From: an uncultured Gammaproteobacteria bacterium | GTDB taxonomy: Bacteria; Pseudomonadota; Gammaproteobacteria; UBA4575 | Direction of reading: 5' to 3' | Length of the DNA stretch: 64,000 bases | Assembly (NCBI GenBank): GCA_905479295.1 | Contig: CAJQLY010000002.1 | Span: 118,887 to 182,886 of the forward strand | Shown: positions 14,143-64,000 of the stretch, piece by piece | Layout of the letters: each line of letters opens with the position of its first letter | How positions within the stretch are numbered: the stretch's first letter is position 1 | Notes under the pieces: model-generated | What the model was told of the DNA's origin: nothing | The model's input: only the letters and a program-made list of their open reading frames with translations | The model's database searches: none | Translations under genes and position numbers: made by a program

Positions 14143-16080
<1,938 letters not shown>

Positions 16081-19172: not shown

Positions 19173-19829
19173 ATGGCCATTTTCAATCCATCTGAAAGAC
19201 TAATGATGCCGACGGCAGAACAAGCCTTACCTGGTCGTTCTCAGGCGATGCCTGTGTCTGCACCACATCACGTACTTGGTACGCCGTTGCAAGGCCCCTT
19301 TGCTGAAGGCAGTAAAAAACTGTTATTAGGCATGGGTTGTTTCTGGGGGGTTGAACGTAAGCTATGGCAGCAGCAGGGCGTCTTAGTGACTGCTGTTGGT
19401 TACGCTGGTGGGCTCACTCCAAATGCAACCTATGACGAGGTATGCACTGGTATGACTGGGCATAACGAAGTAGTGCTTGTGGTCTATGATCCAGCGCAAA
19501 CCACATTGGAAACGTTGCTTGCAGTCTTTTGGCAATCACATAATCCAACCCAAGGCATGCGCCAAGGCAACGATATGGGTACGCAATATCGTTCGGGTCT
19601 TTATCTCTATAGTGAATCAGATTTACAGCTGGCAGAGGCTGCACGTATGACTTATGCAAGCTGTTTGAAACAAGCGGGTGTAACTGTAGCGATCACGACT
19701 GAGATCATGCCAGCCCCTGAGTTTTACTATGCTGAAGAGTATCACCAGCAATATCTAGCAAAAAACCCTGCGGGCTACTGTGGCTTGGCTGGGATCGGTG
19801 TCGACTATTCACAGACAGCACAGGTATAG
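19173..19829 (+). CDS. msrA: peptide-methionine (S)-S-oxide reductase
   Basis: GMGCFWGVE active-site motif; 218 aa. Confidence 0.95.
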
Positions 19830-19901
19830 CTTCTTGTGCAGTGCAAGCGTACTCGTGTTTTTACTGGCTTGGCGTATATTTACATCTAATTAATAAAGAT
19901 A

Positions 19902-20567
19902 GTGATAGAAAATATTATGAGTGATGAATCAATCTCGGATTTACGGAAGGACTACCAAAAAGACAGTCTGACTCGAGCCGACCTATTAGCTGACCCAATA
20001 CAGCAATTTCAGTTGTGGCTGGATGTTGCGCGTAAAGCCAAAGTGCTGGAGCCAACTGCGATGAACCTGGCAACCTCTTCTGCTGATGGTGTTATTTCTT
20101 CACGCATGGTTTTGTTGAAGGATTTGGACCAACGTGGTTTTTCTTTCTTCACCAATTATGAAAGTCGTAAGGCGAATGATCTTGCTGAGCATAGTCGTGC
20201 CGCACTATGTTTTTGGTGGGGTGACTTAGAGCGACAAGTACGCATTGAAGGTGTGATTGAAAAAGTCAGTGCGGCTGAGAGTGACCATTATTATAGTCGT
20301 CGTCCACGTGGTAGTCGGATTGGAGCGATTGCTTCACGCCAAAGTACCAAGCTGAGTTCACATGCAGAATTAGAGCAACAGGTGCAGGTGGTAGAACAGC
20401 AGTATGCGGATGGCGAAGAGATTCAACGTCCAGACTACTGGGGTGGCTACCGTGTTTTACCAAATAGTCTCGAGTTTTGGCAGGGTCGTCCTAGTCGCTT
20501 GCACGATCGATTCTGTTATCAACTAGCAGAAGATGGTCAATGGCAGATCACACGTTTGTCACCTTAG
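19902..20567 (+). CDS. pdxH: pyridoxamine 5'-phosphate oxidase
   Basis: PdxH motifs (RMVLLK, FFTNYESRK, RIEG, EFWQGRPSRLHDR). The ATG at 19917 is also possible. Confidence 0.93.
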   Translation: MIENIMSDESISDLRKDYQKDSLTRADLLADPIQQFQLWLDVARKAKVLEPTAMNLATSSADGVISSRMVLLKDLDQRGFSFFTNYESRKANDLAEHSRAALCFWWGDLERQVRIEGVIEKVSAAESDHYYSRRPRGSRIGAIASRQSTKLSSHAELEQQVQVVEQQYADGEEIQRPDYWGGYRVLPNSLEFWQGRPSRLHDRFCYQLAEDGQWQITRLSP

Positions 20568-49005: not shown

Positions 49006-50100
49006 ATGGGATTTAAGTGTGGAATTGTCGGTTTACCAAATGTTGGTAAATCAACATTATTTAATGCCTTAACTCGCGCAGAAATTGCTGCTGAGAATTA
49101 CCCATTCTGCACCATCGAGCCTAATGTGGGTATCGTGCCGGTGCCAGATCCGCGCTTAGATGCATTGGCTGCAATAGCTAAGTCAGAAAAAGTGATTCCA
49201 GCAGTGATGGAGTTTGTCGACATCGCAGGTTTAGTTGCAGGTGCGTCTAAGGGTGAAGGCTTGGGTAATCAGTTCCTAGCTAATATTCGTGAGACTGATG
49301 CCATTGCACAGGTTGTGCGCTGCTTTGAAGACGATGACGTAGTACATGTTGATGGCCGAGTTGATCCATTGAGTGATGTTGAAACTATTAACACTGAATT
49401 GATCTTGGCCGATGTTGATTCAGTTGATAAAGGCATGCTGCGATATCAAAAAGTTGCCCGCTCAGGTGATAAAGAAGCGTTGGCAAATATCGATTTATTA
49501 GAAAAGCTGGCAGCCCACCTAAACGAAGGCAAACCAGCGCGTAGTTTTGATGTTGCAGAAGACCAACGCAAAATGGTGCGTGATCTACATCTAATCACTG
49601 CAAAGCCGATGATGTACATTGCCAACATCGATGAAGACGCTTTACAAGGCAGTACTGAGTTAGCAGATCGTCTCGCGGCATTAGCGGCTGAAGAAAAAGC
49701 CCAGTTTGTCACTGTTTGCGCTCAAATCGAGGCCGAAATTATCCAATTAGAGGATGATGAGCGTGATGAGTTTCTGGCAGACCTTAATCTAACCGAGCCT
49801 GGTCTAAATCGCGTTATTCGTGCTGGCTATGAGCTACTAGGCCTGCAGACTTATTTCACCGCTGGGCCAAAAGAGGCAAGGGCATGGACTGTACGAGTAG
49901 GTGCTACTGGCCCACAAGCGGCTGGTGTGATTCACACCGACTTTGAAAAAGGATTTATCCGTGCCGAAGTTATCGCTTTTCAAGATTATATTGATGGCAA
50001 TGGTGAACAGGGTGCAAAAGATGCAGGTAAATGGCGTTTAGAGGGTAAGGAATACATCATGGTCGAAGCCGATGTTGTGCACTTCCGCTTCAATGTTTGA
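49006..50100 (+). CDS. ychF: redox-regulated ribosome-binding ATPase YchF
   Basis: 364 aa with [18 protein letters not shown] and a C-terminal TGS-like region ending in RFNV. Confidence 0.95.
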
Positions 50101-50177
50101 TATTCTACTGCGTTAGTTAAGCCCTCTTATTTGACAGGGTTTCAGTGGTCGCGTATGTTGCGGCTTCACTTCGAAAA

Positions 50178-50254
50178 GGCTATGTAGCTCAGTTGGTTAG
50201 AGCACAGCATTCATAATGCTGGGGTCGGTGGTTCGAGTCCACCCATAGCCACCA
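50178..50254 (+). tRNA. tRNA-Met (elongator, anticodon CAU)
   Basis: 77 nt. Acceptor ggctatg/catagcc, anticodon loop ttCATaa, T-arm ggtgg-ttcgagt-ccacc and encoded CCA. Near-identical in pattern to E. coli metT/metU. Confidence 0.93.
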
Positions 50255-50284
50255 TTTATACCTCCAGAATCTTCCTTTATCGTA

Positions 50285-50506
50285 TTGATTAGCTTGAGTT
50301 TTCAACTTAATGCTCAGGAGTATGGTAGACAATACGGAAGACAAACAATAATCCAATCTATACGTTCGTTGACTAAGCGTGGCATCTGTTATTTTTCACA
50401 ACTAGTTCCGTTTGATGTTCGGCATCAATATAAAAAATTTAAAATCGTTCAATCACTTAAAGTATATTTTAGGAGAGCTGCGGCAGCTTGTGCAAGGTTA
50501 TGGTGA
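50285..50506 (+). pseudogene. integrase N-terminal fragment (remnant)
   Basis: The ORF starts 31 nt after the tRNA. KRGICYFSQLVPFDVRHQYKKFKIVQSLKV resembles the RGxxYF(R)xxVPxDL...K.I..SLKT N-terminal motif of tyrosine integrases. No catalytic domain follows. Confidence 0.35.
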
Positions 50507-50707
50507 TGGGTATCAGCTAGAGCAGATGCATCTTACGATGAAGATATTATGCGCTGAGTAGTTGTTCGTATAATCATTCTTCAAACTAATACGACAGCCA
50601 TGATTAAAGTAGCTTTAGTTTACTAAGATAAAGTCAAGTATAAATAACCTGAAATCTATTTTATCTGTAAGATAGTATGCATAAATAATCACCACAAGCA
50701 CTGATAG

Positions 50708-51232
50708 ATGTTCCCAGCAAACTCAAAAACCACTGAACAAAAGCCTAACTTAACACATCATTATTTGACTGCTGTATTAGCGCTTACTGCCTTAATAACG
50801 TCACCACAAATAAAAGCTGAGGATTATTTTACTGACTTAGGCTTTTTGCCTAATGTTACTTATGAACGAAGCGTTACTTATGGCGTCTCTGCCGATGGCT
50901 CAGTAGTTGTTGGTTATAGTTACAACGCTAATAGTGATATGAAAGCGTTCCGCTGGACACTGGAAACTGGCATGGAAAGCGTGGAAGACTGGCTGAGCAA
51001 TGCGGGTGTCAGCATTGCTGCCTGAGTCAGTGGTAGTGCCAACATACTCAATGCCGTCAACATGCCTTTTAACATCAAGGGCAATGATGTCGAGCAAGAC
51101 TGGGTACGTGTGGCTGCCGAGGTCGTACATCGCTTCAGCCGTAGTAACAGACTATCGCTATCAACGACTGCTGCTAGTGTAGGCGAAGACGCTGACTTTA
51201 GTGTTGGTGCAAACTGGACTATGTTGTTTTAA
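50708..51232 (+). pseudogene. autotransporter relic (HAF-repeat N-terminus fused to barrel C-terminus, in-frame TGA)
   Basis: Signal-like N-terminus plus one HAF-type repeat (GVSADGSVVVGYS....AFRWT...GM). A TGA lies at 51023-51025. The same frame then continues to 51232 and ends in ...DFSVGANWTMLF, an autotransporter-type terminal beta-strand. Confidence 0.5.
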
Positions 51233-51339
51233 GTGCTCAGTTAGTTTGAATTGATGACTAGGCAGACCATAAGGCGATGAAAGAATTAAAACTTCATCAT
51301 TAGTCAGGGATGTTAAAAGAAGGTTAGTTGGTACTTAGC

Positions 51340-51411
51340 GGCTCTGCTGGGTCAATAGGCGCAACATTCATACTGCTGGAGTCGGTTGTTCGAGTCCGGC
51401 CATAGCCAGCA
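51340..51411 (+). pseudogene. degenerate tRNA-Met copy (att-like repeat)
   Basis: The 3' 48 nt match tRNA-Met at 41 of 48 positions by hand alignment. The T-stem pairing is broken, the end is AGCA rather than ACCA, and the 5' half has diverged. Confidence 0.7.
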
Positions 51412-51531
51412 TATTCCAAAAGCAGTAAAATCAAAAATTTCTTTTAAGCACGGCCATAATTTTTATAGCCGTTCTATTATTAGGTGTTTGCGTACTTAAC
51501 AAGGAATTGAGTTAAGTGTTGGGAGAAGGAA

Positions 51532-51981
51532 ATGTTTGAACAGATTACAGAACAGCAAATCTTACTACGATTATCTTTGGCGATGGTTGTGGGCATGCTG
51601 ATAGGGATTGATTCTTGGTATAATCGAAGAAATGCAAGTATTCGGATTTATTGTGTTGTCGCAGTAACCTCAGCGATGACTATGATGTTGATAGCCAATC
51701 AAACTGGAAATCACCCAGAAGCATTTAGTCGAGTGCTAGCGGGTTTAATTACTGGCTTTGGATTTTTAGGTGGTGGCATTATTATGCGACAGTCTGAAAC
51801 GCATCAATTATTTGGATTAACTACTGCAGCAACAATTTGGGGTTGTGGCTTAATCGGTGCTTGCTTGGGTGCTGGGCAATACAGTATTGCAGCGCATGCA
51901 ACAGTAGCAATGATCATGGTTCTCTATATTAATTTGGATAGCCTGATGCAGCGTATTGGGATTAGAAGAAAATCTAATTAA
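51532..51981 (+). CDS. MgtC/SapB family membrane protein (membrane domain only)
   Basis: 149 aa with LRLSLAMVVGMLIGID, GFGFLGGGIIMR and GLTTAATIWGCGLIGACLGAG motifs. Confidence 0.8.
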   Translation: MFEQITEQQILLRLSLAMVVGMLIGIDSWYNRRNASIRIYCVVAVTSAMTMMLIANQTGNHPEAFSRVLAGLITGFGFLGGGIIMRQSETHQLFGLTTAATIWGCGLIGACLGAGQYSIAAHATVAMIMVLYINLDSLMQRIGIRRKSN

Positions 51982-52131
51982 GGTAAGATTCAAATAGGAA
52001 AGATATGGAGGCCTGTTGCTGAGCTATATCACTTTGCTAGCTTAGGCCCTATGCGTATTAGCTATAGTTTGAGCTTAAATACCTAATTATAAGGTTAATA
52101 TAGAACTTACCGTAACCACGTAGACAGATAT

Positions 52132-52791
52132 ATGACTATTTCTGACTCAGTAGTATTTAGTATGGCTCACCATCCTTACGTGGTGGGTGGTCTTAAGTTG
52201 TTTCCTTTCCCCTTGTTTATCACATTCATACTCCTTTTTTCTTCGGCGTTTGCAGCAGAACCTATCAGTCGTGCTACTGATTGTACTGAAATGGAAGTTC
52301 AGGCAGATATTAATCCAGAATTAAGTAGAGATGAAAATCTGCAGCAATTATCTGAAATATTTTATGAGTCGTTGAATACAGTCACACATTGTGAATCTAC
52401 TGAAGATTCAGCGGATGGAGTACAATCCTCTATTGATGGGGAGGCGGCAGATTCTATGGCTAGTATTGCTGCTTCAGATATCAGTGGAACGGAAAGTGAT
52501 GAGTCCCTGTCAGAGAGTAATGCTGATATGGAGCAAAATGCCTTCGAAGATAATACTGAGTATGCGTCTGATATGGATGATCTTGAAATAACTGAGAGTG
52601 ATACAAAAGGAAAAGAGAACGGGACTCAGGCGCCTGGTGATATCCCGCCGAGTGATAATGACTCGATTTTTGAAAAGCAAATACGCGAAGCAGCAGAAAA
52701 TGAAACCGATCCAGAGGTTAGAGAACGTCTTTGGAATGAATACCGAAAGTATAAAGGCTTACCGGTAAAACCAGTTAAGGAGAAGTCATAG
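52132..52791 (+). CDS. secreted, extremely acidic low-complexity protein (system gene 1)
   Basis: Hydrophobic signal sequence ending in SSAFA/AEP. A long D/E/S-rich segment is followed by a conserved-looking basic tail, ETDPEVRERLWNEYRKYKG. The stop overlaps the next start (TAGTG). Confidence 0.7.
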   Translation: MTISDSVVFSMAHHPYVVGGLKLFPFPLFITFILLFSSAFAAEPISRATDCTEMEVQADINPELSRDENLQQLSEIFYESLNTVTHCESTEDSADGVQSSIDGEAADSMASIAASDISGTESDESLSESNADMEQNAFEDNTEYASDMDDLEITESDTKGKENGTQAPGDIPPSDNDSIFEKQIREAAENETDPEVRERLWNEYRKYKGLPVKPVKEKS

Positions 52792-54095
52792 TGTGGATCT
52801 GGGTTAAGCAAGTAATCATTTATTTGCTAGTGCTGAGTATGGTGGGTTGTAATTCACAAGCGATGTTTAACACTAAAGATGATTCGATAGACCAGTCGGA
52901 TGTCGGTCCTGCTACTTCGTCAAAGATTGAAGCATCTATAGTTGAAGAGCAGCCGATTAATCGTGGACGTAAATTAGATGTCATTATCCCTATATTTGAT
53001 TCAGGGCTAGATGATGAGGTTATTGGTGAGACCGTATGGGCAGAGCTGCGGCGTTCAGAAGCAACTATTTTCGCCAATCAATTAAAAGCAACATTAGATG
53101 CGACTGGCCAGTTTGCTGCAGTTAGAGTAACGCCAGATGCCACTGCAACAGGTGAGCTCTATATTCAAGGCAGAATAGAACAGTCTACGGGTCATGATGT
53201 TGAAATCTCATTAAGTGTTTCAAGTATTACTGGTGAAGATGTAATTGCACGCTCTGCTGCAGGTAGTTTCTCATTTGCCAAACTAATTAATCGTGATGGA
53301 CGTACTATTAAAAGCTTCGAACATACTGTCGATAAAAATTATTTTACGAATCTTAGGAATGATAAGCAGCAAGCCTATCAGCCTGTTTTTGATCAAGCCT
53401 CTGACTTTGTTGTGTCACTTTTGAAAAAATATTCGGAAGCTGAAAAGGCAGAGCTGGGCAATCTGTCTGATTTGCGTTTTGCAGCTAGTTTTTCTGAAGA
53501 TGCATTCTCTGAGTATATGGTGATTGAAAAGGGTGAGACCCATTTAGTCGGTATGCCCAGTATGGATGATCCAATGTATCAAAAAGTCAGGGCGCTTCGA
53601 GTACGAGATCAACTGTTTATCGATAATCTTCAGAATGAATATCAAGGCTTTAACCAACAGATTAATGAAAGCTATTTGTTATGGCAGGAGCAAAGCTTAG
53701 AAGAGCATGTCCTAAAGAAAGAGGCTAAAGCACGTTCAACCAAAAAGATATTAGGCGGCATCGCTTTAATCGGCTTAGCGATATTATCTGCCTCATCTAA
53801 TTCTGGGAGTAACAGTGTTGGTGATAATGCAGCTGCAACAGCTACAGTGGCAGCCGGGGTGGCTGCTGTTGGCCTAATTTCATCAGGTATCCATGATCGT
53901 AAAGAAGCCGCGATGCATAACGAAACGATCAAAGAGTTAGGTCAGTCAGTTGATATTGAGATGTCTCCACAAGTGGTTGCCTTTGAAGAGCGTGAAAAAG
54001 AGTTAGTGGGTGACTCAGCAGAGCAATTTCAACAGTGGCGTTCATTTTTAAAGACCATCTATGAGCTAGAAAAAACACCGGATGTTCAGTTGTAA
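52791..54095 (+). CDS. lipoprotein with C-terminal Gly/Ala-rich hydrophobic hairpin (system gene 2)
   Basis: GTG start and lipobox LSMVGC. The N-terminal part has a CsgG/LpoB-like pattern (weak). The C-terminal region has ILGGIALIGLAILSA...VAAGVAAVGLISSGI. Confidence 0.75.
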   Translation: MWIWVKQVIIYLLVLSMVGCNSQAMFNTKDDSIDQSDVGPATSSKIEASIVEEQPINRGRKLDVIIPIFDSGLDDEVIGETVWAELRRSEATIFANQLKATLDATGQFAAVRVTPDATATGELYIQGRIEQSTGHDVEISLSVSSITGEDVIARSAAGSFSFAKLINRDGRTIKSFEHTVDKNYFTNLRNDKQQAYQPVFDQASDFVVSLLKKYSEAEKAELGNLSDLRFAASFSEDAFSEYMVIEKGETHLVGMPSMDDPMYQKVRALRVRDQLFIDNLQNEYQGFNQQINESYLLWQEQSLEEHVLKKEAKARSTKKILGGIALIGLAILSASSNSGSNSVGDNAAATATVAAGVAAVGLISSGIHDRKEAAMHNETIKELGQSVDIEMSPQVVAFEEREKELVGDSAEQFQQWRSFLKTIYELEKTPDVQL

Positions 54096-54100
54096 ATGCT

Positions 54101-55558
54101 ATGTTGACGGAAGAGGTTGAGCTAGCAAAAGGTAATCAGCGTCAAGGTATCTTGAAGCTCTTGCTAGTATTCCTGCTGACTGGTTTTTTATTGATGGTGG
54201 TTTTTTGGTTACTGCCAAAATTAGTTTCAGAGCCAGATATAGACAATGACGAGCTAAGTAAAATAACAAATCAAAGCGCACCTTATTCATTAAAAGATAA
54301 GACGAATAATGAAACACCTGTTATCAGCTCTGAATACACACAAGAACAAGCATTGGATGCGATTAAGGCATTGGATCAGCAGTTGTTGTTAATGGCTCCT
54401 TATCAGTCTTTGCAGAATGATATAGGGCTTATGCAAACCATTGATAGTGTGCAGACGCAGGTGACTGAAGCCTTTACCCGGGCCGATTACGATGCGGTAG
54501 TGCTTGCCCTGAAAGAGCTGAGCCTTGATATTGATCAGGCAATCAATGCTGCACAATCGACAGTAGAACAAGGTTTGGAAAAGGCTAGGCAGTTATGGCG
54601 TGAGAAGCAGTTGTCGCAGTTGCAGTTAGAATTAAAGCAGATCCAGGCGATTCAAGCCGATCTGCCAGAGTGGTTAGAGCTAAATGATTTACTCATGGCA
54701 TGGCCTGAAGTGGAATCTCTATTAAGGATTTCAAAGACAGCAGGACTTGAAGGGCGCTATCAAGAGCAGCTACAAGCGTTGATCAAAATTAGTCGCTTAT
54801 CAAATGACCTACCTGAATTGGCTCAGCAGATTGCAGGAGTAAAAAGGGAGGTAGCAGAAGATCAATATAGACAAGCTATTACCAAGGCTGACGTTGCTAA
54901 GCGCATACCTGATTTAGCGCGGATGCAGGCTGCAATTAAGTTGGCTCGTGACGTGTACCCTCAACGCCCTGAGGTGACTCGTTTGACTCAAGAGCTGGCT
55001 GAGTTAAAGCGTCAGCGAGACTATCAATTATACCTAAGTCAGGCCGAGCTAAGTTTGACTAAGGATCAATGGGCATCGGCATTTAAAGATTTAAGTGCGG
55101 CTCATGATTTATATCCTAATCAACGAGACACCCTGGATAAAAAAGCCTTTGTTGCTGCATATCTTAAATTAATGCAAGAAAGTACTGAGATCTTAAATCA
55201 ACCAAGCCTGCTTACCTCTGCAGTTAAGAGAAAGCGTTCTGCAGATATATTGGATGGGATGGTTTTATATCGTAGCCTCAGTCTTCGTATGGTGAATATT
55301 GAAAAAGAACTGAGTAAACAGCTTCGACGTTATTCGAAAAAAGTAGCATTGAAGGTGCTGTCAGATAATGAGACCTATATTGAAGTTCGTAGTATTGGCA
55401 AGGTGGGTGTTGTGGCAGAGAAGATGATCTCGCTACTGCCTGGCAACTATCTATTTGAGGGTAAACGCGTTGGCTATGTAACAAAAACAGTCAAGGTGAC
55501 TATTACTCCTGAGGATTTTGATAAACAAGTGAAGGTGATTGCTAATGAGCGAATTTGA
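54101..55558 (+). CDS. N-terminally anchored helical/coiled-coil protein with C-terminal PEGA-like domain (system gene 3)
   Basis: TM helix LLLVFLLTGFLLMVVFWLL, then about 350 aa of helical repeats. The C-terminus (LLPGNYLFEGKRVGYVTKTVKVTI) is PEGA-like. Confidence 0.75.
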   Translation: MLTEEVELAKGNQRQGILKLLLVFLLTGFLLMVVFWLLPKLVSEPDIDNDELSKITNQSAPYSLKDKTNNETPVISSEYTQEQALDAIKALDQQLLLMAPYQSLQNDIGLMQTIDSVQTQVTEAFTRADYDAVVLALKELSLDIDQAINAAQSTVEQGLEKARQLWREKQLSQLQLELKQIQAIQADLPEWLELNDLLMAWPEVESLLRISKTAGLEGRYQEQLQALIKISRLSNDLPELAQQIAGVKREVAEDQYRQAITKADVAKRIPDLARMQAAIKLARDVYPQRPEVTRLTQELAELKRQRDYQLYLSQAELSLTKDQWASAFKDLSAAHDLYPNQRDTLDKKAFVAAYLKLMQESTEILNQPSLLTSAVKRKRSADILDGMVLYRSLSLRMVNIEKELSKQLRRYSKKVALKVLSDNETYIEVRSIGKVGVVAEKMISLLPGNYLFEGKRVGYVTKTVKVTITPEDFDKQVKVIANERI

Positions 55559-57518
55559 AGATCAGATTAAGCAAGCATCTTCACATCAAAATGCACGTTG
55601 GCTGATCTCTAGCATTAGCATTTCGCTGCTATTGTTGTTTATTGGCTTATACATTTTTTCTTTAACAGTCTATACCATTCAGATTGAACCACTTGCAGCA
55701 GATGAGGTTTCGACGCAGTCGATTGAGTCAGGATTCGGGTTTAGCTATAAACAAAAAGTCTTTGCCTTTTCAGATGGGACTAGCCTGCGTGTTAGTGCCG
55801 TAGGCTTTAAAGATAAAGAACTAGTCTTGAAAAGCCATGTTGAGAACGGCATTGTTAGCTTTAATCTAGAGCCTAAGTTAGCACTGGTTTCATTACAGAC
55901 CAAGTCGATGACTGTTGTTGATTGGTATCTTGATGGGCGTTTTGTTGAACGTGCTTCAAGCCTGCAACGAGAGCTCGATCCAGGTGAGTATGTATTCAGC
56001 GTGCAGTCTAATTATCATCAAGTGATCGATGATAGTGTCAGTGTTAAAGCGGGTTTAGACGTTAATCGCACGTACTCTTTATTGCCATTGGAAGGCACAC
56101 TGACGATCCATGCAGATGTATCATCAGCAAAGCTTACGGTTGATGCGATGCCTTATAAGTTAGGGGATGTGCTGAGTAAGCAGGCAGCTAAGTATGCGAT
56201 TGAGGTTAGTGCGCCGGGTTACTATCCTATCGAAGAAGATATCTCGTTAGATAAGAAAGATCTCAGGGTTCAACGACATTATAAACTTCGACCTAAACCT
56301 ATTGCGTTGACGCTTAAGCTACAACCTAAGGGTGGTGTATTATTAGCTAATGGCCTTCAGCTCAAGCCTGATAGCGCTATAAAATTACCGTATCAAAATC
56401 AGTTTATCTTTGAATATGCAAAACCAGGCTATGTTAGCCAAGTGCTACAGCGTAGCTTTAAACCTGGAGAACAGTTCAAGCTGGATTTCTCACTAGTAGA
56501 ACAAAAGGCTGCGGTTAGTATTAGTGCGAATGTTGAATCAGATATTTATATTCAAGGGCAGCGTGTTGCGACGACCCCTGCAACATTACAGCTACTGACA
56601 AAGAAACAGACTATAGAGCTGCGTAAAAAAGGCTATCGCAGTGTTAAGCAGACGATCATGCCGAATGCTAAACAGCTGACTAAGTTGCAAATGACACTGT
56701 ATACCGAGACACAGGCACGGTTGTTAGAGGCAAAGAATGTCTACATCAATTCGGTGGGCATTGAGTTTCAATTGGTCAAGCCACAGGGCCAGCAATTTAC
56801 CATGGGTGGGTCACGTGATGAGCCGGGGCAGAGGGCGAACGAATTCCAGCGTAAAGTGCGATTAGAGCGACCTTTTTATGTTGCTAGTACTGAATTGACG
56901 GAATATCAATTTTCAGCCCGCAACGCGAATTCTAATCAACCACTAGTGAACACTGCATGGGAACAGGTTGCCGTATTTTGTAATCAGTTAAGCCTGAAAG
57001 AAGGATTGCAGCCGTTCTATTTATTTCGTGGTACTAAATACATCGGTTTTGAAGCTAAGGCGAATGGCTATAGGATGATCACTGAAGCAGAGTGGGAGTT
57101 TATGGCGCGTGTTTATCAGCGTGACAAGAAAACTACATTTGCTTGGGGGAATCAGGATCAAGTACCAGCCGAGGCGGGTAATCTTGCTGATGCCGAAAGC
57201 CAATTAGCGCGCTATATTCCACGTTATAAAGATGGTGTCAGTGGCCTAGCTAATATTAGAAGCTATGCAGTGGAATTGTCAGGCCTGTTTGATCAGATTG
57301 GTAATGCCAGTGAATGGGTACATGATATTTATGACCTAACACCGGCTGATCAACGAGTGGTGTATGTTGACCCTTTGGGACTGTCTAAAGGTAATAACCA
57401 TGTGATTAAAGGTTCAAGTTATTTGTCTGCCTCTAAGACTGAAGTTAGGGCAGCCTTTCGGGATGGCTCTGCTAGCCCAAGGCCTGAGCTAGGTTTTCGT
57501 TTAGCCCGGTATTTATAA
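55545..57518 (+). CDS. membrane-anchored PEGA-repeat protein with C-terminal FGE-sulfatase (SUMF1) fold (system gene 4)
   Basis: TM helix ISISLLLLFIGLYIFSLTVY and about 5 PEGA-like repeats (e.g. IYIQGQRVATTPATLQL...KKGYRSVKQTI). The FGE fold shows FTMGG, GYRMITEAEWEF, GNASEWVHD, VIKGSSY and LGFRLAR. The ATG at 55545 overlaps the upstream gene by 14 nt. Confidence 0.85.
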   Translation: MSEFEDQIKQASSHQNARWLISSISISLLLLFIGLYIFSLTVYTIQIEPLAADEVSTQSIESGFGFSYKQKVFAFSDGTSLRVSAVGFKDKELVLKSHVENGIVSFNLEPKLALVSLQTKSMTVVDWYLDGRFVERASSLQRELDPGEYVFSVQSNYHQVIDDSVSVKAGLDVNRTYSLLPLEGTLTIHADVSSAKLTVDAMPYKLGDVLSKQAAKYAIEVSAPGYYPIEEDISLDKKDLRVQRHYKLRPKPIALTLKLQPKGGVLLANGLQLKPDSAIKLPYQNQFIFEYAKPGYVSQVLQRSFKPGEQFKLDFSLVEQKAAVSISANVESDIYIQGQRVATTPATLQLLTKKQTIELRKKGYRSVKQTIMPNAKQLTKLQMTLYTETQARLLEAKNVYINSVGIEFQLVKPQGQQFTMGGSRDEPGQRANEFQRKVRLERPFYVASTELTEYQFSARNANSNQPLVNTAWEQVAVFCNQLSLKEGLQPFYLFRGTKYIGFEAKANGYRMITEAEWEFMARVYQRDKKTTFAWGNQDQVPAEAGNLADAESQLARYIPRYKDGVSGLANIRSYAVELSGLFDQIGNASEWVHDIYDLTPADQRVVYVDPLGLSKGNNHVIKGSSYLSASKTEVRAAFRDGSASPRPELGFRLARYL

Positions 57519-57543
57519 AATATCCGAAAAAGGATGCAATATT

Positions 57544-57666
57544 ATGAATAAAAAATTATTAGTAGGGTTTCTGTGTTTTCTGATGCTTTGCCTAACGGCT
57601 GTTGGTATTACCTATGCAGCTAAATTGAGTGTAGGTGTTCCTGTTAGCTTTCCGGTAGATATTTAA
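57544..57666 (+). CDS. unannotated 40-aa hydrophobic peptide (system gene 5)
   Basis: MNKKLLVGFLCFLMLCLTAVGITYAAKLSVGVPVSFPVDI. It is below the ORF-track length cutoff. The stop overlaps the MotA/ExbB start (TAATG). Confidence 0.5.
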   Translation: MNKKLLVGFLCFLMLCLTAVGITYAAKLSVGVPVSFPVDI

Positions 57667-58433
57667 TGACTAAATCAATTCAAGGCATTATCGCCTTAAC
57701 GCTGTCTGCAATTTTAGTCCATGGCTTTTATGTGGTTTTAGTAGAGCCTAATGTTGCGCTAGCACAAGCCTTAATTATACAGGGTGATGGTGAGCAACAA
57801 CGCTCTATTTGGATTATTTTAAAAGACTTTGAGCAGGAAGCATGTCTGATCTTAATGTTCTGGGCGATCTATCTGATTGCTGAGAAATTCATTCATATCA
57901 CGAAGACTAATTATTTATTTGAGGTCGACTTCTTCAAGAACTGTGATATGAGCAGTACTGCTATTAGTACGGTAGTTGATGATCTAGAAGACTTAAAAGG
58001 TGGCATCGCTAACACGCCCTTAATCCGTACACTTAAAGTATCACTACGACGATTTTTGTTGTCGCAAGATATTCATGCAACGGCAGAGGTTATCGAGGCA
58101 GAGTGTGTTGCCCTAGGTAACAAAAATGAAGCCGAGAATTCAATGATCCGTTATTTGATATGGGCGATTCCATCAATAGGTTTCATCGGTACGGTGCGGG
58201 GTATTGGTCAGGCCTTAGCGCAGGCTGATAAAGCTTTAGCTGGTGATATATCTGGTATGACAAATAGTTTGGGTGTCGCTTTCAATTCGACCTTGGTTGC
58301 ATTATTCGTCAGTATGATCCTGATGTTTCTGCTATATCAATTGCAACGTGCGCAAGACTCCTTAACCGTATCAGTGAATGATTATTGCCAGAATAAAGTA
58401 TTAGATCCGCTAAGCCGAAGCCGTCTTAACTAG
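57666..58433 (+). CDS. MotA/TolQ/ExbB proton-channel family protein (system gene 6)
   Basis: 255 aa with 3 TM helices. Has the family C-terminal signature IPSIGFIGTVRGIGQAL ... GVAFNSTLVALFVSMILMFL. Confidence 0.88.
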   Translation: MTKSIQGIIALTLSAILVHGFYVVLVEPNVALAQALIIQGDGEQQRSIWIILKDFEQEACLILMFWAIYLIAEKFIHITKTNYLFEVDFFKNCDMSSTAISTVVDDLEDLKGGIANTPLIRTLKVSLRRFLLSQDIHATAEVIEAECVALGNKNEAENSMIRYLIWAIPSIGFIGTVRGIGQALAQADKALAGDISGMTNSLGVAFNSTLVALFVSMILMFLLYQLQRAQDSLTVSVNDYCQNKVLDPLSRSRLN

Positions 58434-58442
58434 ATAGATAAG

Positions 58443-59504
58443 ATGCGCCGCAATCCTACCTCTAACTTAGCGTTCATCGATATCATGAGTTGTGGTTTAG
58501 GGGCGGTTATCCTGATCTTGGTATTATTAAAAAATCAGCAGACAACACCAGATGAGCTGGTTGAGTTGGAGCATGCTGGTTTAGATCAGCAGATAGCAGC
58601 TTTGCTGAGTCAGCGACAAGCGGCTATGGCAAAGACTGAAGCTAAACAATCAGCGTTGTCAAAGCTAGACCAAGAGATCAATGATTTACGCGCTAGACAG
58701 TCAGTTATTGCTTCTATTAAGAGCACTACACTGAGTACGATTGAACGCCTGCAATTAAAGATTCAATCCAGTCAGCAAGGCCTCAGTAGCTTACTTGAAA
58801 AAGAGAAGATCAATCCGATCGAGACACAAACAATACGACAGCAAGATTATTTGGTTGGCCTGAATATAGAAGGCCAACGTATTGCTATATTGGTCGATAG
58901 TAGTGCGTCAATGACTGCACGTGAGCTGATTAGCATTACGAACTACAAGGTTCAATCAGAGGCTAAACGTAGATCAGCAGCTAAATGGAAAAGAACTTTA
59001 CGCATAGTTCAGTGGCTGATGGCGAGAGCTCCGGAAGACTCAGAGCTACTGGTGATGTCGTTTTCTGATCAGGCAATTATACAAAGTCAGCCTAAGTGGA
59101 TCTCAGTTAAAGATGAGAAAGCATTGGCAGTGACTCAGAAAGCAATACGCTCAGTCACACCTTATGGTGCAACAAATTTAGAGAAGGCAATGGCTAAGGT
59201 GCTGAAGCAGCGCCCAGACGCGATTTATCTGATAACCGATGGCTTGCCAACTCGAGGTTTAAGTGAGTCATCCATCTTATCCTCTGGCGGCTGTGGTGGT
59301 ATGACAGCATTAAAGAAAACTGTATCTGGTGAGTGTCGTGTCACACTATTGCGGCAGGCAGCTAGTCTAACAAATCCATTCCGCGGCAAACTTTCAATTA
59401 TCTTGTTACCTTTAGAGGGTGATCCCCAGGCGGCTCCAGAGCTGTCTAAATGGGTGTTAAGTACAGGTGGTACTTTAATTAGCCCGGCGGCTACTTGGCC
59501 ATGA
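58443..59504 (+). CDS. ExbD/TolR-like TM anchor - coiled coil - vWA domain protein (system gene 7)
   Basis: The N-terminus LAFIDIMSCGLGAVILILVLL parallels ExbD PFIDVMLVLLIIF, including the Asp. A coiled coil spans about aa 45-125. The vWA domain has MIDAS elements DSSAS, GATN and ITDG. Confidence 0.85.
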   Translation: MRRNPTSNLAFIDIMSCGLGAVILILVLLKNQQTTPDELVELEHAGLDQQIAALLSQRQAAMAKTEAKQSALSKLDQEINDLRARQSVIASIKSTTLSTIERLQLKIQSSQQGLSSLLEKEKINPIETQTIRQQDYLVGLNIEGQRIAILVDSSASMTARELISITNYKVQSEAKRRSAAKWKRTLRIVQWLMARAPEDSELLVMSFSDQAIIQSQPKWISVKDEKALAVTQKAIRSVTPYGATNLEKAMAKVLKQRPDAIYLITDGLPTRGLSESSILSSGGCGGMTALKKTVSGECRVTLLRQAASLTNPFRGKLSIILLPLEGDPQAAPELSKWVLSTGGTLISPAATWP

Positions 59505-60424
59505 TGCGCAGAGAAGCACCAGATGCATTTGGTACTGCCTTTCTGGATATTATTTCCTGTGGCTTTGGTGCAATTGTATTGTTGATTCTTATCTTTAAAT
59601 TTGAGCCTGATGTCAGTGGTCTTATTTCGGTTGAAAGCGATGATGCAAAGGCTAAGATTAAACAGCTCTATGGTCTTATGGATGAGCTGAAAACAGAATC
59701 AGCAGTCGATAGTGAGCAGTCTACTAAGGCCAAAGCAGAAATATTAAAGGCAGCACGGGCTAAACTTGAATATGCAATGACTGAGACTGCCAAATTGCAA
59801 CAGACCTCAACTGAGCTTAAGAAGCAACTTGGTGCATTGCAAAAAAAGGTTAAGAAGCAACAGATTGCAGGCACCTCAGAGGGTGATCAATCACGTCAGG
59901 ATGATGAAGTTGGTGGTATTCCAGTCGATCGTGATTATGTCATTTTTATTGTTGATACCTCCGGCAGTATGAAAGAGATCTGGCGTAAGGTGATGCGTGA
60001 GATAGAGGATATATTGACCGTCCACCCCCAAGTGAAGGGCTTCCAGATCATTAATGATAATGGCAACTATCTGGTTAGTGGCTATGCTGGTAAGTGGATG
60101 AAAGATACACCGAGTATGAGAAAACGTGTAATGAAGCTGTTTAGCTCTTGGGCAAGCATCTCAAATAGTAGCCCAGTTGAAGGGATTGAAACCGCCTTAA
60201 CACGGTATTCAAAATACACTAAAAATCTTTCGATTTATGTCATCGGTGATGATTTCACCGGCGCAAATTTTGATCAGGTTATTTCACGTACGCGCCAGCT
60301 GAATAAAGGACGCGCGCGTATCCATGCACTCAACTTTATCTCACCTAATGCATCTACTGATCGCTTCAGTACTTTGATGCGAGAGATCTGTCGCGAAAAC
60401 CAAGGGACCTTCCTGACTTTTTAA
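59501..60424 (+). CDS. ExbD/TolR-like TM anchor - coiled coil - vWA domain protein, paralog (system gene 8)
   Basis: The ATG overlaps the upstream stop (ATGA). N-terminus is AFLDIISCGFGAIVLLILIF. It has a Lys/Gln-rich coiled coil and a vWA domain with DTSGS and VIGDD. Confidence 0.85.
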   Translation: MMRREAPDAFGTAFLDIISCGFGAIVLLILIFKFEPDVSGLISVESDDAKAKIKQLYGLMDELKTESAVDSEQSTKAKAEILKAARAKLEYAMTETAKLQQTSTELKKQLGALQKKVKKQQIAGTSEGDQSRQDDEVGGIPVDRDYVIFIVDTSGSMKEIWRKVMREIEDILTVHPQVKGFQIINDNGNYLVSGYAGKWMKDTPSMRKRVMKLFSSWASISNSSPVEGIETALTRYSKYTKNLSIYVIGDDFTGANFDQVISRTRQLNKGRARIHALNFISPNASTDRFSTLMREICRENQGTFLTF

Positions 60425-60441
60425 TCCTAAGATAAAGCTGG

Positions 60442-60903
60442 CTACTGTTTAGCTGAGAAGTGTTTACTCAGGTATCTATCTAATTCGTTTGCAAAGGATT
60501 TTCGGTCGGTTTGTCCGTAAGGGGCTTGGCCACCTGACTGGATACCACTGCCACGCAAGGTATCCATGAAGTCACGCATGCTGAGTATCGATTTGATGGT
60601 GTTCGCTGTGTACATCTCACCACGTGGGTTTAATGCAGCTGCATTTTTCTCAATGACTTCAGCAGCTAAGGGAATATCACTAGTAATTACCAGATCACCA
60701 GCAGTCACTTGCCTTACAATCTCATCATCTGCTACATCAAAGCCATCAGGAACCTGTAGCATTTTGATATTGCTTAGTCGCGGTTTATTAATAGCTTGAT
60801 TGGCGACTAAAATAACTTCAACACCAGTACGTTCTGCTGCACGAAATAGAATATCTTTGGCAGGTACTGGGCATGCATCTGCATCTACCCAAATCTTCAT
60901 CAT
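60442..60903 (-). CDS. yaiI: YaiI/YqxD family protein (UPF0178)
   Basis: 153 aa with the family hallmark [12 protein letters not shown]. Confidence 0.85.
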
Positions 60904-60918
60904 TAAGGCCTGAGTAAG

Positions 60919-62511
60919 TTATTGATCATCAACAGTAAGTAGGTATTCATCATAGGTACCATGAAAATTAATCATTTTCTTATCCTTGATTTCAACGATA
61001 TGAGTGGCTAATGAGGAAACGAATTCACGGTCATGGCTGACAAAAATTAGTGTTCCCTCATAATTCGCTAGGGCAAGGTTGAGTGCTTCGATTGATTCCA
61101 TATCTAAATGATTGGTTGGCTCATCCATAATCAGGACATTGGTTTCCAACATCATCAGTTTTCCAAATAGTAGGCGATTCTTTTCACCGCCTGAGCAGAC
61201 TGCTGCCTTCTTGTTGAAATCATCAGTTGAAAACAATAAGCGACCAAGAGTTGCACGTACAATCTCTTCATTATGATGAGGTTTACGCCATTGACTCATC
61301 CAGTCAAATAGATTCATGTCATGATCAAAATCGTTATTACTATCTTGAGGGCAATAGCCTAAGGTCGCATTTTCTGACCATTTAATGACGCCAGTATTAG
61401 CCTTTAATTCGTCTATTAAGCAACGTAGAAAAGTACTTTTTCCAGTGCCGTTCTCACCAATAACAGCCATGCGACTACCAGCTTCAATGATGAATCCACC
61501 ATCACTGAATAGAGTCTCATCATCATAGCCATGACTGAGTTTTTCTACTGTTAGGGCTTGGCGTTGTATCTTCTTACTTTGCGTAAAGCGAATAAACGGA
61601 TTGACACGGCTTGACGGTTTGATGTCTTCGAGTTTTATCTTCTCGATTTGCTTGGCACGTGAAGTAGCCTGTTTTGCCTTTGATGCATTTGCTGAAAAAC
61701 GGCTGACAAATTGCTGTAGATCAGCAATCTGTGCCTTTTTCTTTGCATTCTCATTCTGTGAATGTTCGCGTACAGCGGTTGAAGCAATCATGAAATCATC
61801 ATAGTTGCCTGGGTAAACGCGTAATTCACCAAAATCCATATCTGCAATATGGGTGCAGACGGAGTTCAGGAAGTGTCTATCATGAGAGATGATGATAATA
61901 GTGCTTTTACGTTCAACAATAACGTTTTCTAACCAACGGATGGTGTGGATATCTAAGTTATTGGTTGGCTCATCAAGTAATAGAATATCTGGATCAGCAA
62001 ACAAAGCCTGTGCTAATAGTACGCGTAACTTCCAACCGGGAGCGACTTCACTCATTGGCCCACTATGGAATGATTCGGCGATGCCGGCACTCATTAGTAG
62101 TTCACCAGCACGACTGTCCGCACTATAGCCATCTAATTCAGCAAATTCGACCTCAAGGTCAGCGACTTTCATGCCATCTTCATCGCTCATCTCGGGTAAT
62201 GAATAAATGCGATCTCGTTCTTTTTTGACTTCCCATAAGCGACTATGCCCCATGATTACTGTGTCGACTACGTTATAGTCTTCAAAGGCAAATTGATCTT
62301 GGTGTAATTTACCAACACGCTCATTTGGTGTGATTGAGACATTGCCTGCACTGGGTGCAAGTGTGCCATCCAGAATCTTCATGAAAGTGGATTTACCACA
62401 ACCATTGGCACCGATCAGGCCATAACGATTACCTTCTCCAAACTTTACTGAGATGTCTTCAAATAAAGGTTTGGCGCCAAATTGCATAGTGATGTTTGCA
62501 GTAGAGATCAA
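60919..62511 (-). CDS. ybiT: ABC-F family ATPase, YbiT-like
   Basis: 530 aa with two ABC cassettes (GANGCGKST / GENGTGKST; LSGG-type CSGGEKNR). Collinear with my recollection of E. coli YbiT along its whole length. Confidence 0.9.
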
Positions 62512-62781
62512 AACAGAGGCCTTAAAATATAATAGGGATACGAGGTATCATTTCTTGAATATTCGACGAATTTAACTGCTCGAATAACGAGGAGCTTTCG
62601 CCGAGCAAGATGATAGCAAAATAAAGGCAGGCAGAGGCATTTAATCTCTATAGTTGGCTTAGTCGAAAAGTTGAGAATTGACCGAGATAAGACTGGATTT
62701 AGTGTTAAGACATCGTGAGAGAAGAAGGCCGTGTTCTTATAGGCGCCAGCTATGATTAGCCAAGGAATGTCATAAAAAGAC

Positions 62782-62812
62782 AATAAGTGAGGGCCATATA
62801 TCCTCACTTATT
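62782..62812 (-). terminator. orphan intrinsic-terminator-like hairpin in a long intergenic region
   Basis: Perfect 11-bp inverted repeat aataagtgagg / cctcacttatt with a 9-nt loop. On the minus strand it is followed by gtctttttat. No annotated minus-strand gene lies upstream of it. Confidence 0.45.
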
Positions 62813-62962
62813 AGATGGTAGATGATCAAAATTTAAATAGTTAAAGCTTTAGACATTCCATTGATAGGCTTCTTCACCTGCGATGGTAAAAAACAGCCAG
62901 ACATCAATCAATAAAGTGACTAAGAAGGCCAGGGAGCTACCCAGTGCCCAGAAGACTTACTG

Positions 62963-63601
62963 ATGCTTGATGCGTCTATTAGTAAGTATAAAACCCTATA
63001 TAAGGCTGATGCGATCTTTCACCAAGGTACTGAATCGAGTTGTATTTATGCGATACGTTCAGGAGCAGTGCGGACCTACACCACGGCAAAAAATGGTGAT
63101 CAACAGACCTTAGGCTTTCATTTGCCAGGAGATATTCTTGGGTTGAATGGTTTAGATAATAAGATTCATAGCTGTTCTGGTGTAACACTCGCTACATCGA
63201 CGATCTGTGAAATTCCCATCAAAACACTACACATGCTCTGTATTAAAATGCCCGGTTTGCAAAGGCAGTTGTTGCGTGTGCTAGGCGAAGAGATCAGTAA
63301 GGATTACACCATGCTGCTAATGTTGGCACGATGTAATGCCGATCAAAAGCTAGCTATATTCTTCACTAACCTCTCTGAGAGGTTTGGAAAACGTGGGTTT
63401 TCTACACGCGAATTTGAACTAACGATGACCCGTAGTGAAATAGCGAACTACCTAGGTTTGGCCGATGAGACCATCAGTCGCTTAATTGCACGATTCAAGG
63501 ATAAGAAGCTGATTCAGGTGCAGAGAAAAAGCATTAAAATTATAGCGAAACAACGCATGATTGAAATCGCTGAAGGGGAGTGCACTTTAGATGAGGTTTA
63601 G
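62963..63601 (+). CDS. Crp/Fnr family transcriptional regulator, FNR-like but without N-terminal Cys cluster
   Basis: Collinear with FNR from the cNMP-like barrel (IYAIRSGAV..YT....G..Q..GFHLPGDILG) to the HTH (MTRSEIANYLGLADETISRLIARF, E--SR helix). The ICEIP Cys is retained. No CxxxCxxC region is present. Confidence 0.85.
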   Translation: MLDASISKYKTLYKADAIFHQGTESSCIYAIRSGAVRTYTTAKNGDQQTLGFHLPGDILGLNGLDNKIHSCSGVTLATSTICEIPIKTLHMLCIKMPGLQRQLLRVLGEEISKDYTMLLMLARCNADQKLAIFFTNLSERFGKRGFSTREFELTMTRSEIANYLGLADETISRLIARFKDKKLIQVQRKSIKIIAKQRMIEIAEGECTLDEV

Positions 63602-63662
63602 CCGTAGTAGTTAGGCTGTATGTCTAAGCCAGAATTTATATTTGCTTCGTTATTACAAGCGT

Positions 63663-64000
63663 TTAAACGTACTCGCGTCTCACATGGGCTGCGATACGGC
63701 AGAGTAATTCATATGTAATGGTGTTAGCAGCTTCAGCAATATCGGCTACTGGAACATCGTCTCCCCAGAGTTCTATGTGTTCACCAATCTCGCAATCACA
63801 ATCACTCAGATCAATAGTGATCATATCCATGGAGACACGACCTAGTACATCACAGAGATGACCTCGTACGCTGACTGGGACTGTTTTTTCTAAGCTACGT
63901 GGATAGCCATCAGCATAGCCCATAGCTACGATGCCTATACGCATGTTCTGTGGGCAGGTATAGCTACCACCATAACCGATACGGTCGCCTTGCTTGACCT
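63663..64000 (-). CDS. alr: alanine racemase, C-terminal part (gene runs off the window)
   Basis: GYADGYPR and GRVSMDMITIDL motifs. The ORF is open to the window edge (…GDRIGYGGSY upstream of the listed Met). Confidence 0.85.
   Translation of the reverse strand, partial: VKQGDRIGYGGSYTCPQNMRIGIVAMGYADGYPRSLEKTVPVSVRGHLCDVLGRVSMDMITIDLSDCDCEIGEHIELWGDDVPVADIAEAANTITYELLCRIAAHVRREYV

Follow-up and report, generated by a model that had tools for sequence, protein, structure and literature searches.

Introduction

What kind of machine is encoded by an operon that combines a MotA/ExbB-type channel with two von Willebrand factor A (vWA) proteins and a PEGA/FGE-fold protein? This question is raised by a 64,000-nucleotide stretch of contig CAJQLY010000002.1 from an uncultured gammaproteobacterium (the whole stretch is called the window in the following), in which eight genes on the same strand fill positions 52132-60424 according to the list of open reading frames (ORFs). 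We refer to these genes as G1 to G8 in the order in which they follow each other. The initial annotation, which was made from the sequence alone, had regarded them as a candidate undescribed ion-driven envelope system. MotAB, ExbBD, TolQR, GldLM and ZorAB are ion-driven motors with a 5:2 stoichiometry. From our analysis we conclude that the operon probably encodes an ion motor of the MotA/TolQ class, in which a heterodimer of G7 and G8 would be held within a G6 pentamer and metal-ion-dependent adhesion site (MIDAS) heads would act on partners in the envelope. What the data show directly are the domain identities, the conserved residues, the paralogy of the two vWA proteins, the coupling of the genes and their co-conservation.

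Results

The channel subunit G6 carries an invariant pore motif

The proposed MotA/TolQ/ExbB channel is encoded by G6 (57666-58433, plus strand), whose product of 255 aa contains four hydrophobic segments in its translation and matches the Pfam family MotA_ExbB (1.9e-12). In an alignment that includes TolQ and ExbB of E. coli, the residues P169, G172, G175, T176 and T209 are invariant, with T176 and T209 corresponding to the two threonines that line the lumen of TolQ and ExbB. None of the 77 G6 orthologs deviates at these five positions or at N207 and S208, i.e. the pore motif PxxGxxGT and the second threonine are invariant among them, and the assignment as a channel was borne out in this respect. 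Matches to individual subfamilies are low: G6 reaches 12.8 bits with the MotA equivalog of NCBIfam (cut-off 340) and 14.9 bits with NCBIfam ZorA_4 (cut-off 500), and it matches ZorA of PADLOC at 5.7e-5 over 90 residues, with no match to any other Zor protein. G6 is a divergent member of the family and presumed to form the pentameric stator ring.

A further conserved feature of G6 is found in the predicted loop between hydrophobic segments 1 and 2 (residues 50-61, window positions 57813-57848). Among the 77 orthologs, K53-D54-x-E56-Q57 is invariant and C60 is near-invariant, and the motif K53-D54-x-E56-Q57 has no counterpart in the aligned TolQ or ExbB of E. coli. This loop motif may represent a docking site, for example for G5.

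G7 and G8 are paralogous vWA proteins with an Asp-bearing N-terminal helix

The two genes downstream of G6 encode the pore-helix vWA proteins 1 (G7; 58443-59504, plus strand, 353 aa) and 2 (G8; 59501-60424, plus strand, 307 aa). An ATG start was assigned to G8, for which the earliest in-frame start in the ORF list is a TTG at 59495. G7 consists of an N-terminal helix with Asp13, a coiled coil of about 85 residues and a vWA domain with a MIDAS, and it matches the Pfam family VWA_2 (1e-8). In the AlphaFold2 model of G7 (predicted local distance difference test score, pLDDT, 75.9), a single helix spans residues 37-121 and is followed by a confident alpha/beta domain, for which Foldseek returned vWA matches including CMG2/ANTXR2, the minor pilin PilB, ITIH1, TRAP and the BatA-like protein 4jdu of Bacteroides. 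The MIDAS residues D152, S154, S156, T244 and D266 of G7 are 100% conserved, as is a pair of cysteines, which fits a periplasmic location of the domain. In G8, too, a coiled coil leads into a vWA domain, which is divergent and contains the motifs DTSGS and GDD; the MIDAS residues D152, S154, S156 and D250 are conserved in 80 of 80 orthologs. That G8 is a paralog of G7 is apparent from BLASTP (1e-9, 25% identity) and from the alignment of the two families with hhalign (99.5% probability, E 2e-23), which runs through the DxSxS motif and beyond.

Both proteins share the N-terminal motif [AS]F[IL]D[IV][MI][ST]CG[LF]GA, the aspartate of which (D13 in G7, D16 in G8) aligns with D23 of TolR and D25 of ExbD from E. 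coli and is retained in all 55 G7 sequences with a captured N-terminus and in 80 of 80 G8 sequences. Histidine is absent from the N-terminal helices of both translations, as is an SHLS motif. Neither protein matched the ExbD, TolR, MotB or OmpA families of Pfam and NCBIfam at E ≤ 1. The label "ExbD/TolR-like", which had been given to the two paralogs, thus holds for the position of the Asp-bearing helix only; the proposal of a pmf-type channel with two plug subunits that carry vWA (MIDAS) domains was corroborated by the invariant threonines of G6, the invariant aspartate, the vWA fold of G7 and the invariant MIDAS in both paralogs. An aspartate and two threonines in the pore that are invariant in more than 70 orthologs are what would be expected of a working ion-coupled motor.

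The motor core belongs to a previously predicted family

A motor core of this kind has already been predicted in silico. According to the main text of PMC12204202 (Mol Biol Evol 2025;42:msaf138), vWA homologs with a transmembrane (TM) tether co-occur tightly with tolQ homologs in the absence of tolR/exbD, are mostly found in heterologous pairs and possess a TolR/ExbD-like trans-pore helix with a conserved Asp. The AlphaFold 3 models presented there, which have a 5:2 stoichiometry, place the Asp pair inside a Thr ring of the TolQ-like pentamer. Idiomarina loihiensis is the exemplar, Proteobacteria and Verrucomicrobia are given as the distribution, and the function was left as unknown by the authors of that text.

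The features that define this family recur in the window: G6 directly adjoins the vWA genes, no tolR, exbD or motB lies beside G6-G8, the TM-anchored vWA proteins G7 and G8 form a heterologous pair, their trans-pore Asp occurs without the SHLS/His motif, and a Thr ring (T176, T209) is found in the channel lumen. Homology to the Idiomarina exemplar was established with a Glaciecola ortholog as query, the genome compared being that of Idiomarina xiamenensis. Its protein P0266 is 31% identical to G7 of the window over the full length (E 2e-56) and is encoded in the same eight-gene operon, the products of which comprise 220, 427, 499 (TPR), 665 (PEGA and FGE), 42, 258 (MotA_ExbB), 356 (vWA) and 317 residues. 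From this we conclude that the motor core is not new and that the operon is a typical member of the predicted motor family, so that the term "undescribed" in the initial annotation does not hold for the core. The main text of PMC12204202 mentions neither PEGA, FGE, sulfatase or GldK nor the partners G1-G5, and literature searches combining MotA/ExbB, vWA, PEGA, FGE or Pfam names yielded no other description. The eight-gene composition, the non-catalytic FGE partner, the lipoprotein resembling PelC and the TolB N-domain, and the SFPVDI peptide, all of which are presented below, thus appear to be undescribed additions to the family.

The gene order is rigidly conserved across several classes

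More than 1,700 significant relatives of G7 were found in the protein collection, and at least 528 species genomes (one genome scanned per species) carry such a relative; the 80 best of these loci were studied in detail. They span Gamma-, Alpha-, Beta- and Zetaproteobacteria, Nitrospirales and Desulfobacula, with hosts that include Methylophaga, Glaciecola, Litoricola, Arenicellales, Thiotrichaceae, Methylomonas and Magnetovibrio as well as Aestuariispira, Sneathiella, SAR116, Rhodospirillales, Nitrosomonadaceae and Mariprofundus. Most of the species among those listed come from marine or aquatic samples. A search with G8 in 1.84 billion proteins returned 677 cluster representatives (50% identity) at E ≤ 1e-3 and 176 at E ≤ 1e-30; the family is modest in size yet widespread.

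The gene order was determined by tblastn with the eight window proteins in the 59 loci that have sufficient upstream DNA. In 53 of them, the order G1-G2-G3-G4-(G5)-G6-G7-G8 is kept, with the seven larger genes being colinear, and of the six exceptions, four belong to the Glaciecola type and do have a G1, which is divergent and was recovered when the Idiomarina G1 was used as query. The co-occurrence of a MotA/ExbB gene, two vWA genes and an FGE-PEGA gene across genomes, for which a search had been suggested at the outset, is thereby established, and such rigid co-conservation of the gene order argues that the operon is not a chance arrangement. G6 directly adjoins G7 in all loci with sequence, and the FGE/PEGA protein G4 is very strongly co-conserved with the motor genes. 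Gene lengths are near-constant among the loci, and even the overlaps recur: the 14-nt overlap of G3 and G4 (ATGARCNNATTTGA) was found in 51 loci and the ATGA overlap of G7 and G8 in 60 loci, which argues for a paired, equimolar production of the respective proteins. Outside the operon this conservation ends, and clustering of the flanking genes did not reveal a ninth conserved gene. The candidates that came closest, a GGDEF protein with 9 and an ABC-F protein with 8 of 48 loci, were rejected, their occurrence being a lineage effect or that of a common family.

Two deviating arrangements were noted. A contig of Candidatus Kentrum harbors only G5-G6-G7-G8, with G1-G4 being absent from the 10 kb upstream, and its MotA-like gene is separated from the first vWA gene by an insertion that comprises a gene for a PIN-domain toxin and a small gene upstream of it (contig positions 9265-10004). 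This locus suggests that a four-gene core without accessory genes nearby can exist. In the representative library, a protein of 699 aa (P0466) joins an N-terminal part of UvrC to a G8-like C-terminal part; it was rejected as a G7-G8 or biological fusion, as this UvrC-G8 chimera is probably an artefact of assembly or gene calling.

The accessory proteins provide candidate envelope partners

G4 (55545-57518, plus strand, 657 aa) is N-terminally anchored by a TM helix, which is followed by PEGA-type beta-sandwich repeats and a C-terminal FGE/SUMF1 fold (Pfam: PEGA 6e-14, FGE-sulfatase 9e-25). Its ATG start was chosen over the earliest in-frame start of the ORF list, a TTG at 55539. Among PDB sequences, catalytic FGE is matched at 3e-8 and PorK/GldK structures at 8.5e-5, and the FGE domain matches the NCBIfam family GldK (TIGR03525) at 4e-13. 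The analogy to GldK, which had been drawn before, therefore has a basis, though its 49.4 bits are far below the membership cut-off of 350. When aligned to the FGE of Streptomyces and human, none of 69 orthologs has a Cys at either catalytic position, from which we conclude that the FGE domain of G4 is a binding or structural module and no enzyme; a role of G4 as catalytic formylglycine-generating enzyme was rejected on these grounds.

Directly upstream, G3 (54101-55558, plus strand, 485 aa) encodes a TPR-like helical protein with an N-terminal anchor and a C-terminal PEGA-like beta domain. TPR families of Pfam match 8 of 26 orthologs, weak TPR matches are also found in the PDB, and the last 65 residues align to the PEGA repeat of G4 (hhalign E 7e-5, probability 62%). 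Judging from the sequence, G3 is translationally coupled to G4.

The lipoprotein G2 (52791-54095, plus strand, 434 aa, GTG start) has the lipobox LSMVGC, the Cys20 of which is invariant among orthologs and is followed by Asn at position +2. In gammaproteobacteria, Asn at +2 after the lipid-modified Cys is the rule for sorting to the outer membrane, and G2 is in consequence suggested as a candidate outer-membrane partner. It comprises an alpha/beta domain at the N-terminus, a long helix, a hydrophobic segment rich in Gly and Ala that weakly matches the glycine zipper of YiaD, and a conserved helical region at the C-terminus. No Pfam family was found for any of 31 orthologs, and a profile search against PDB sequences gave no match. 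An AlphaFold2 model, built on the alignment from the protein search, has a pLDDT of 67.7 with a confident N-terminal alpha/beta domain; Foldseek ranked the PelC dodecamer first (5t11_D, E 5.9e-3, TM-score 0.54) and the TolB N-domain next (E about 0.1). We rate this modelled likeness to PelC and the TolB N-domain as weak to moderate.

G5 (57544-57666, plus strand) codes for a peptide of 40 aa, in which the conserved C-terminus (I)SLNSPVSFPVDI comes after a segment that resembles a signal peptide or TM helix and contains an AxA motif. A small ORF with this C-terminal motif is located just upstream of G6 in most loci, across the sampled phyla and in Idiomarina, and G5 is accordingly a real gene. 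If it is cleaved, as we infer, the product would be a periplasmic peptide of about 12-20 residues (15 in the window).

The first gene, G1 (52132-52791, plus strand, 219 aa), encodes a secreted acidic low-complexity protein that almost every locus encodes. Two of its Cys are conserved, the C-terminal helix motif PEDIPxADNDSVLxAQIRxAAExETDPxxKxxLWNEYRKYKG is strongly so, and P168, N176, D177, A187, A188, E191, P194, Y204 and R205 are invariant in the ortholog alignment. No Pfam family was found for any of 26 G1 orthologs, and among the window proteins themselves no significant Pfam match was obtained for G1, G2, G3, G5 or G8.

The eight genes form a compact operon of envelope proteins

The genes are separated by next to nothing. 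G1 and G2 overlap by 1 nt (TAGTG, 52791), G2 and G3 are spaced by 5 nt, the 14-nt overlap of G3 and G4 covers 55545-55558, a spacing of 25 nt lies between G4 and G5, the stop of G5 overlaps the start of G6 (TAATG, 57666), G6 and G7 are spaced by 9 nt, and the ATGA overlap of G7 and G8 is located at 59501-59504. Six metagenome contigs with identical DNA, which stem from a coastal marine time series (ENA), carry independent gene calls that resulted in the same eight genes, with products of 219, 434, 485, 657, 40, 255, 353 and 307 residues. A scan for promoters and terminators detected fewer sites in the operon than in shuffled sequence, so that nothing speaks against a single operon. The translations further revealed signal-peptide-like N-termini in G1 and G5 and one N-terminal TM helix each, preceded by basic residues, in G3, G4, G7 and G8, in addition to the lipobox of G2 and the hydrophobic segments of G6. 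The initial annotation had thus been correct in describing eight co-directional, barely spaced genes, in all seven of their junctions and in directing all eight products to the envelope.

Close relatives share the chromosomal site of the operon

The initial annotation had deduced an accessory function from the location next to a tRNA-Met hotspot with debris of mobile elements. The tRNA-Met gene is located at 50178-50254 and is followed by a HAF-repeat gene fragment, an MgtC gene and the operon, and no integrase or transposase was found near the tRNA gene or the operon in the window, so that the HAF-repeat fragment is the only debris. The HAF-repeat ORF (50708-51025, plus strand, 105 aa; TIGR02913, 1.5e-7), which lies between the tRNA-Met and MgtC genes, appears to be a piece of a gene for a larger surface protein. 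It has no match in a close relative (L010), where ychF and MgtC are much closer to each other, which suggests a small indel beside the tRNA gene.

The same relative, with housekeeping genes that are 98% identical, has the gene order pth-ychF-MgtC-operon-YaiI-ABC-F at the same site, and a second relative (L012, 79% G7 identity) shares the downstream genes. Altogether, relatives at 79-92% identity keep the downstream genes, and L010 keeps the upstream genes too. In addition, searches of 72,556 plasmids and of 2.9 million viral contigs detected no homologs. These results lend no support to an accessory function deduced from a mobile hotspot or to an island, as close relatives hold the operon at the same chromosomal site. 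A constitutive role in the envelope is in our view more probable than one in defence.

Several further observations concern the neighborhood. Comparing the window with L010, the flanking housekeeping proteins are 98% identical and the identity of the operon proteins lies between 73% (G1) and 98% (G6), with most at 82-92%, which indicates that most operon proteins evolve faster than their neighbors. The G+C content is 0.41-0.44 over 50001-64000 and 0.44-0.47 elsewhere in the window; since the drop includes the downstream housekeeping genes, it is no island signature of the operon alone. In the 2.85-Mb chromosome of one relative (L007), a mobile element with a phage-type integrase, a DUF1233 protein and a REP_ORF2-G2P replication protein (15727-19998) is adjacent to the operon, about 4 kb downstream, and was seen in this one genome only. 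In I. xiamenensis, the next gene downstream of the operon codes for a GH114 glycoside hydrolase, with a CHASE-GGDEF gene close by (12060-12905 and 15248-16591, both on the minus strand), and genes with a GGDEF domain are located within 10 kb of the operon in about 13 of 60 loci. These neighbors could hint at a link to exopolymers or to control by cyclic di-GMP, or could be due to chance, since GGDEF genes are common.

Discussion

How could these proteins work together? In the ion motor that we consider probable, G6 would make the membrane ring, and G7 and G8, produced in equimolar amounts from their overlapping genes, would each insert the Asp-bearing helix into this ring and thereby replace TolR, ExbD or MotB, which would result in a 5:1:1 complex. 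Ion flow via the Asp/Thr site would turn or pull the coiled coil of G7 and G8, which with about 85 residues could extend over about 12 nm and bring the two vWA heads with their metal-dependent MIDAS into the periplasm, where they may engage the membrane-anchored G4 with its PEGA stalk and non-catalytic FGE-fold head, the TPR-PEGA protein G3 and the lipoprotein G2; the acidic G1 or the SFPVDI peptide G5 are possible ligands of the vWA heads. In this manner, energy of the inner membrane could be converted into mechanical work near the outer membrane, like in TolQRA and GldLM/PorLM. In this scheme we infer the 5:1:1 stoichiometry, the rotation, the partner of the vWA heads and the physiological output. 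That the eight genes make up one complete and as yet unrecognised trans-envelope machine, in which the motor would be joined by a GldK-like yet inner-membrane-anchored FGE/PEGA stalk (G4) with G3 as its partner, by G2 and by G1, with the processed G5 peptide of about 15 residues as cofactor or ligand, and that it would rank beside Ton, Tol and GldLM, is a more tentative proposal, which we hold to be somewhat less than even in probability.

Several results weigh against the motor. The G6 family profile matched no PDB sequence at E ≤ 0.01, and the only relevant match at E ≤ 10 was MotA (E 0.057). A profile of 41 positions from the N-termini of G7 and G8 had no match in the PDB even at E ≤ 10, and the likeness of the pore helices to those of ExbD, TolR and MotB is, at the level of sequence, positional and without statistical homology. 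The structural part of the argument is based on monomers, with the pore helix of G7 being of low confidence in its model, and one third of the G2 model is of low confidence as well, in addition to the weakness of its match to PelC. Furthermore, the operon encodes neither a peptidoglycan anchor nor an outer-membrane barrel that could hold the motor halves, and the literature reports no phenotype for the family or the operon.

Within the reading as a motor, one particular output deserves consideration, namely surface transport, adhesion or exopolymer export in the manner of GldLM-GldKN or Agl-Glt, for which the motor would drive an outer-membrane-proximal ring or scaffold of G2 and G4 and thereby move or expose an adhesin or polysaccharide. 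We regard this as unlikely. G4 has its FGE fold in common with GldK and PorK, G2 resembles the ring-forming lipoprotein PelC of the Pel exporter, G3 is rich in TPRs, as are the scaffolds of synthase-dependent polysaccharide exporters, and vWA domains reportedly act as adhesins in the gliding of Myxococcus; the GGDEF genes that about 13 loci have within 10 kb and the GH114 gene adjoining the Idiomarina operon would also be in line with such an output. However, the operon lacks a glycosyltransferase, an outer-membrane barrel, a secretin and any component of the type IX secretion system (T9SS), the similarity to GldK is limited to the domain level (49 versus 350 bits), the GGDEF neighbors are not conserved and may be due to chance, and the hosts include SAR116 and Litoricola, which we take to be planktonic.

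Far less probable is a static, Bat-like scaffold for metal-dependent binding, in which G6 would only serve as ion channel or assembly factor and no force would be generated. The absence of the Bat-defining genes for a MoxR ATPase and a DUF58 protein, the fact that the pore Asp and the two Thr never vary among more than 70 orthologs and the tight linkage of the vWA genes to the MotA-like gene, to which we found no exception, all argue against a scaffold of this kind, even if the vWA model of G7 matches the aerotolerance-related membrane protein 4jdu of Bacteroides, a TPR protein is co-encoded and no stator-anchoring domain was found. A Zorya-type anti-phage or conflict system, in which the motor would sense a perturbation of the envelope and signal to an effector, is highly improbable, since, despite the weak ZorA matches of G6 (PADLOC 5.7e-5, ZorA_4 14.9 bits), the flanking genes that vary among genomes and the integrase about 4 kb downstream in L007, no nuclease, helicase or other effector is encoded and all eight products are envelope proteins, plasmids and viral contigs are free of homologs, relatives keep the downstream and in L010 also the upstream genes, and the rigid eight-gene order is unlike the shuffling in defence islands.

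To our knowledge, only few machines bring ion energy of the inner membrane to the outer envelope, namely Ton, Tol-Pal, the flagellar stators, GldLM/PorLM, Agl and Zorya. If the motor reading is true, the family adds another route of energy delivery, in which the role of TolR/ExbD and the force arm are fused in the vWA proteins, and this would concern at least 528 species genomes, among them those of methylotrophs, nitrifiers, iron oxidisers and bacteria of the SAR116 type. What is new here is a fixed inventory of eight proteins, for which conserved residues and gene couplings are defined and can be mutated, and cultured hosts in which the function of the motor can be addressed are found in Idiomarina, Pseudoalteromonas, Alteromonas, Glaciecola, Methylophaga, Magnetovibrio and Sneathiella.

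Comparison with known systems

How does the operon relate to the systems that have been named? Among the eight products, Pfam and NCBIfam families revealed no match to TonB, TolA, TolB, Pal, OmpA, ExbD, MotB, MoxR, DUF58 or GldL/M/N. Family scans of the operon thereby bore out the list of components that had been noted as absent (TonB, Tol-Pal, OmpA, MoxR/DUF58, GldM/N and ZorC/D). The statement that no named system fits was right with regard to Tol-Pal, Ton, MotAB, T9SS, Zorya and Bat, none of which includes the operon as a member, and has to be corrected with regard to the predicted vWA motor family, into which it does fit.

With Tol-Pal, the operon shares the channel pore motif, the Asp helix aligning with TolR, a long periplasmic helix as in domain II of TolA, a TPR partner as in CpoB, and the weak resemblance of the N-domain of G2 to that of TolB. 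In contrast to Tol-Pal, it lacks TolA, the beta-propeller of TolB and the OmpA-like domain of Pal, one polypeptide provides both the pore helix and the force-transmitting arm, and the head is a vWA domain with a MIDAS. A dimeric axle protein that itself spans the periplasm and a co-encoded partner with an FGE fold are also known from GldLM/PorLM, whereas GldL, GldM and GldN are not matched here and no T9SS translocon is encoded; G4 moreover differs from GldK in having an N-terminal TM anchor and a PEGA stalk and no lipobox, and in scoring 49 versus 350 bits. ExbB-ExbD-TonB and MotAB employ the same channel family and the same Asp/Thr residues for ion coupling. However, neither TonB nor the periplasmic domain of ExbD is found in the operon, and, unlike in MotAB/PomAB, there is no OmpA-like peptidoglycan-binding domain, no MotB and no flagellar gene.

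Two TM-anchored vWA proteins together with a TPR protein are reminiscent of BatA, BatB and BatC, in line with the match of the G7 model to 4jdu. MoxR and DUF58 genes are, on the other hand, absent from the operon and its 10-kb flanks, the MotA-like gene is invariably present, and we know of no Bat operon with a MotA-like gene or an Asp-bearing pore helix. ZorAB is comparable as a MotA-like 5:2 motor with a long extension and through the weak ZorA matches of G6, but Zorya differs in its ZorC/ZorD proteins and the peptidoglycan-binding domain of ZorB, which have no counterpart here, and the operon lies outside defence islands, plasmids and viral contigs.

The family of PMC12204202 differs from the operon in that the main text of the paper covers the motor core only, without G1-G5. 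It agrees with the operon in the TolQ-like gene without tolR/exbD, in the two TM-anchored vWA genes, in the pore Asp and the Thr ring and, according to the same text, in its proteobacterial distribution.

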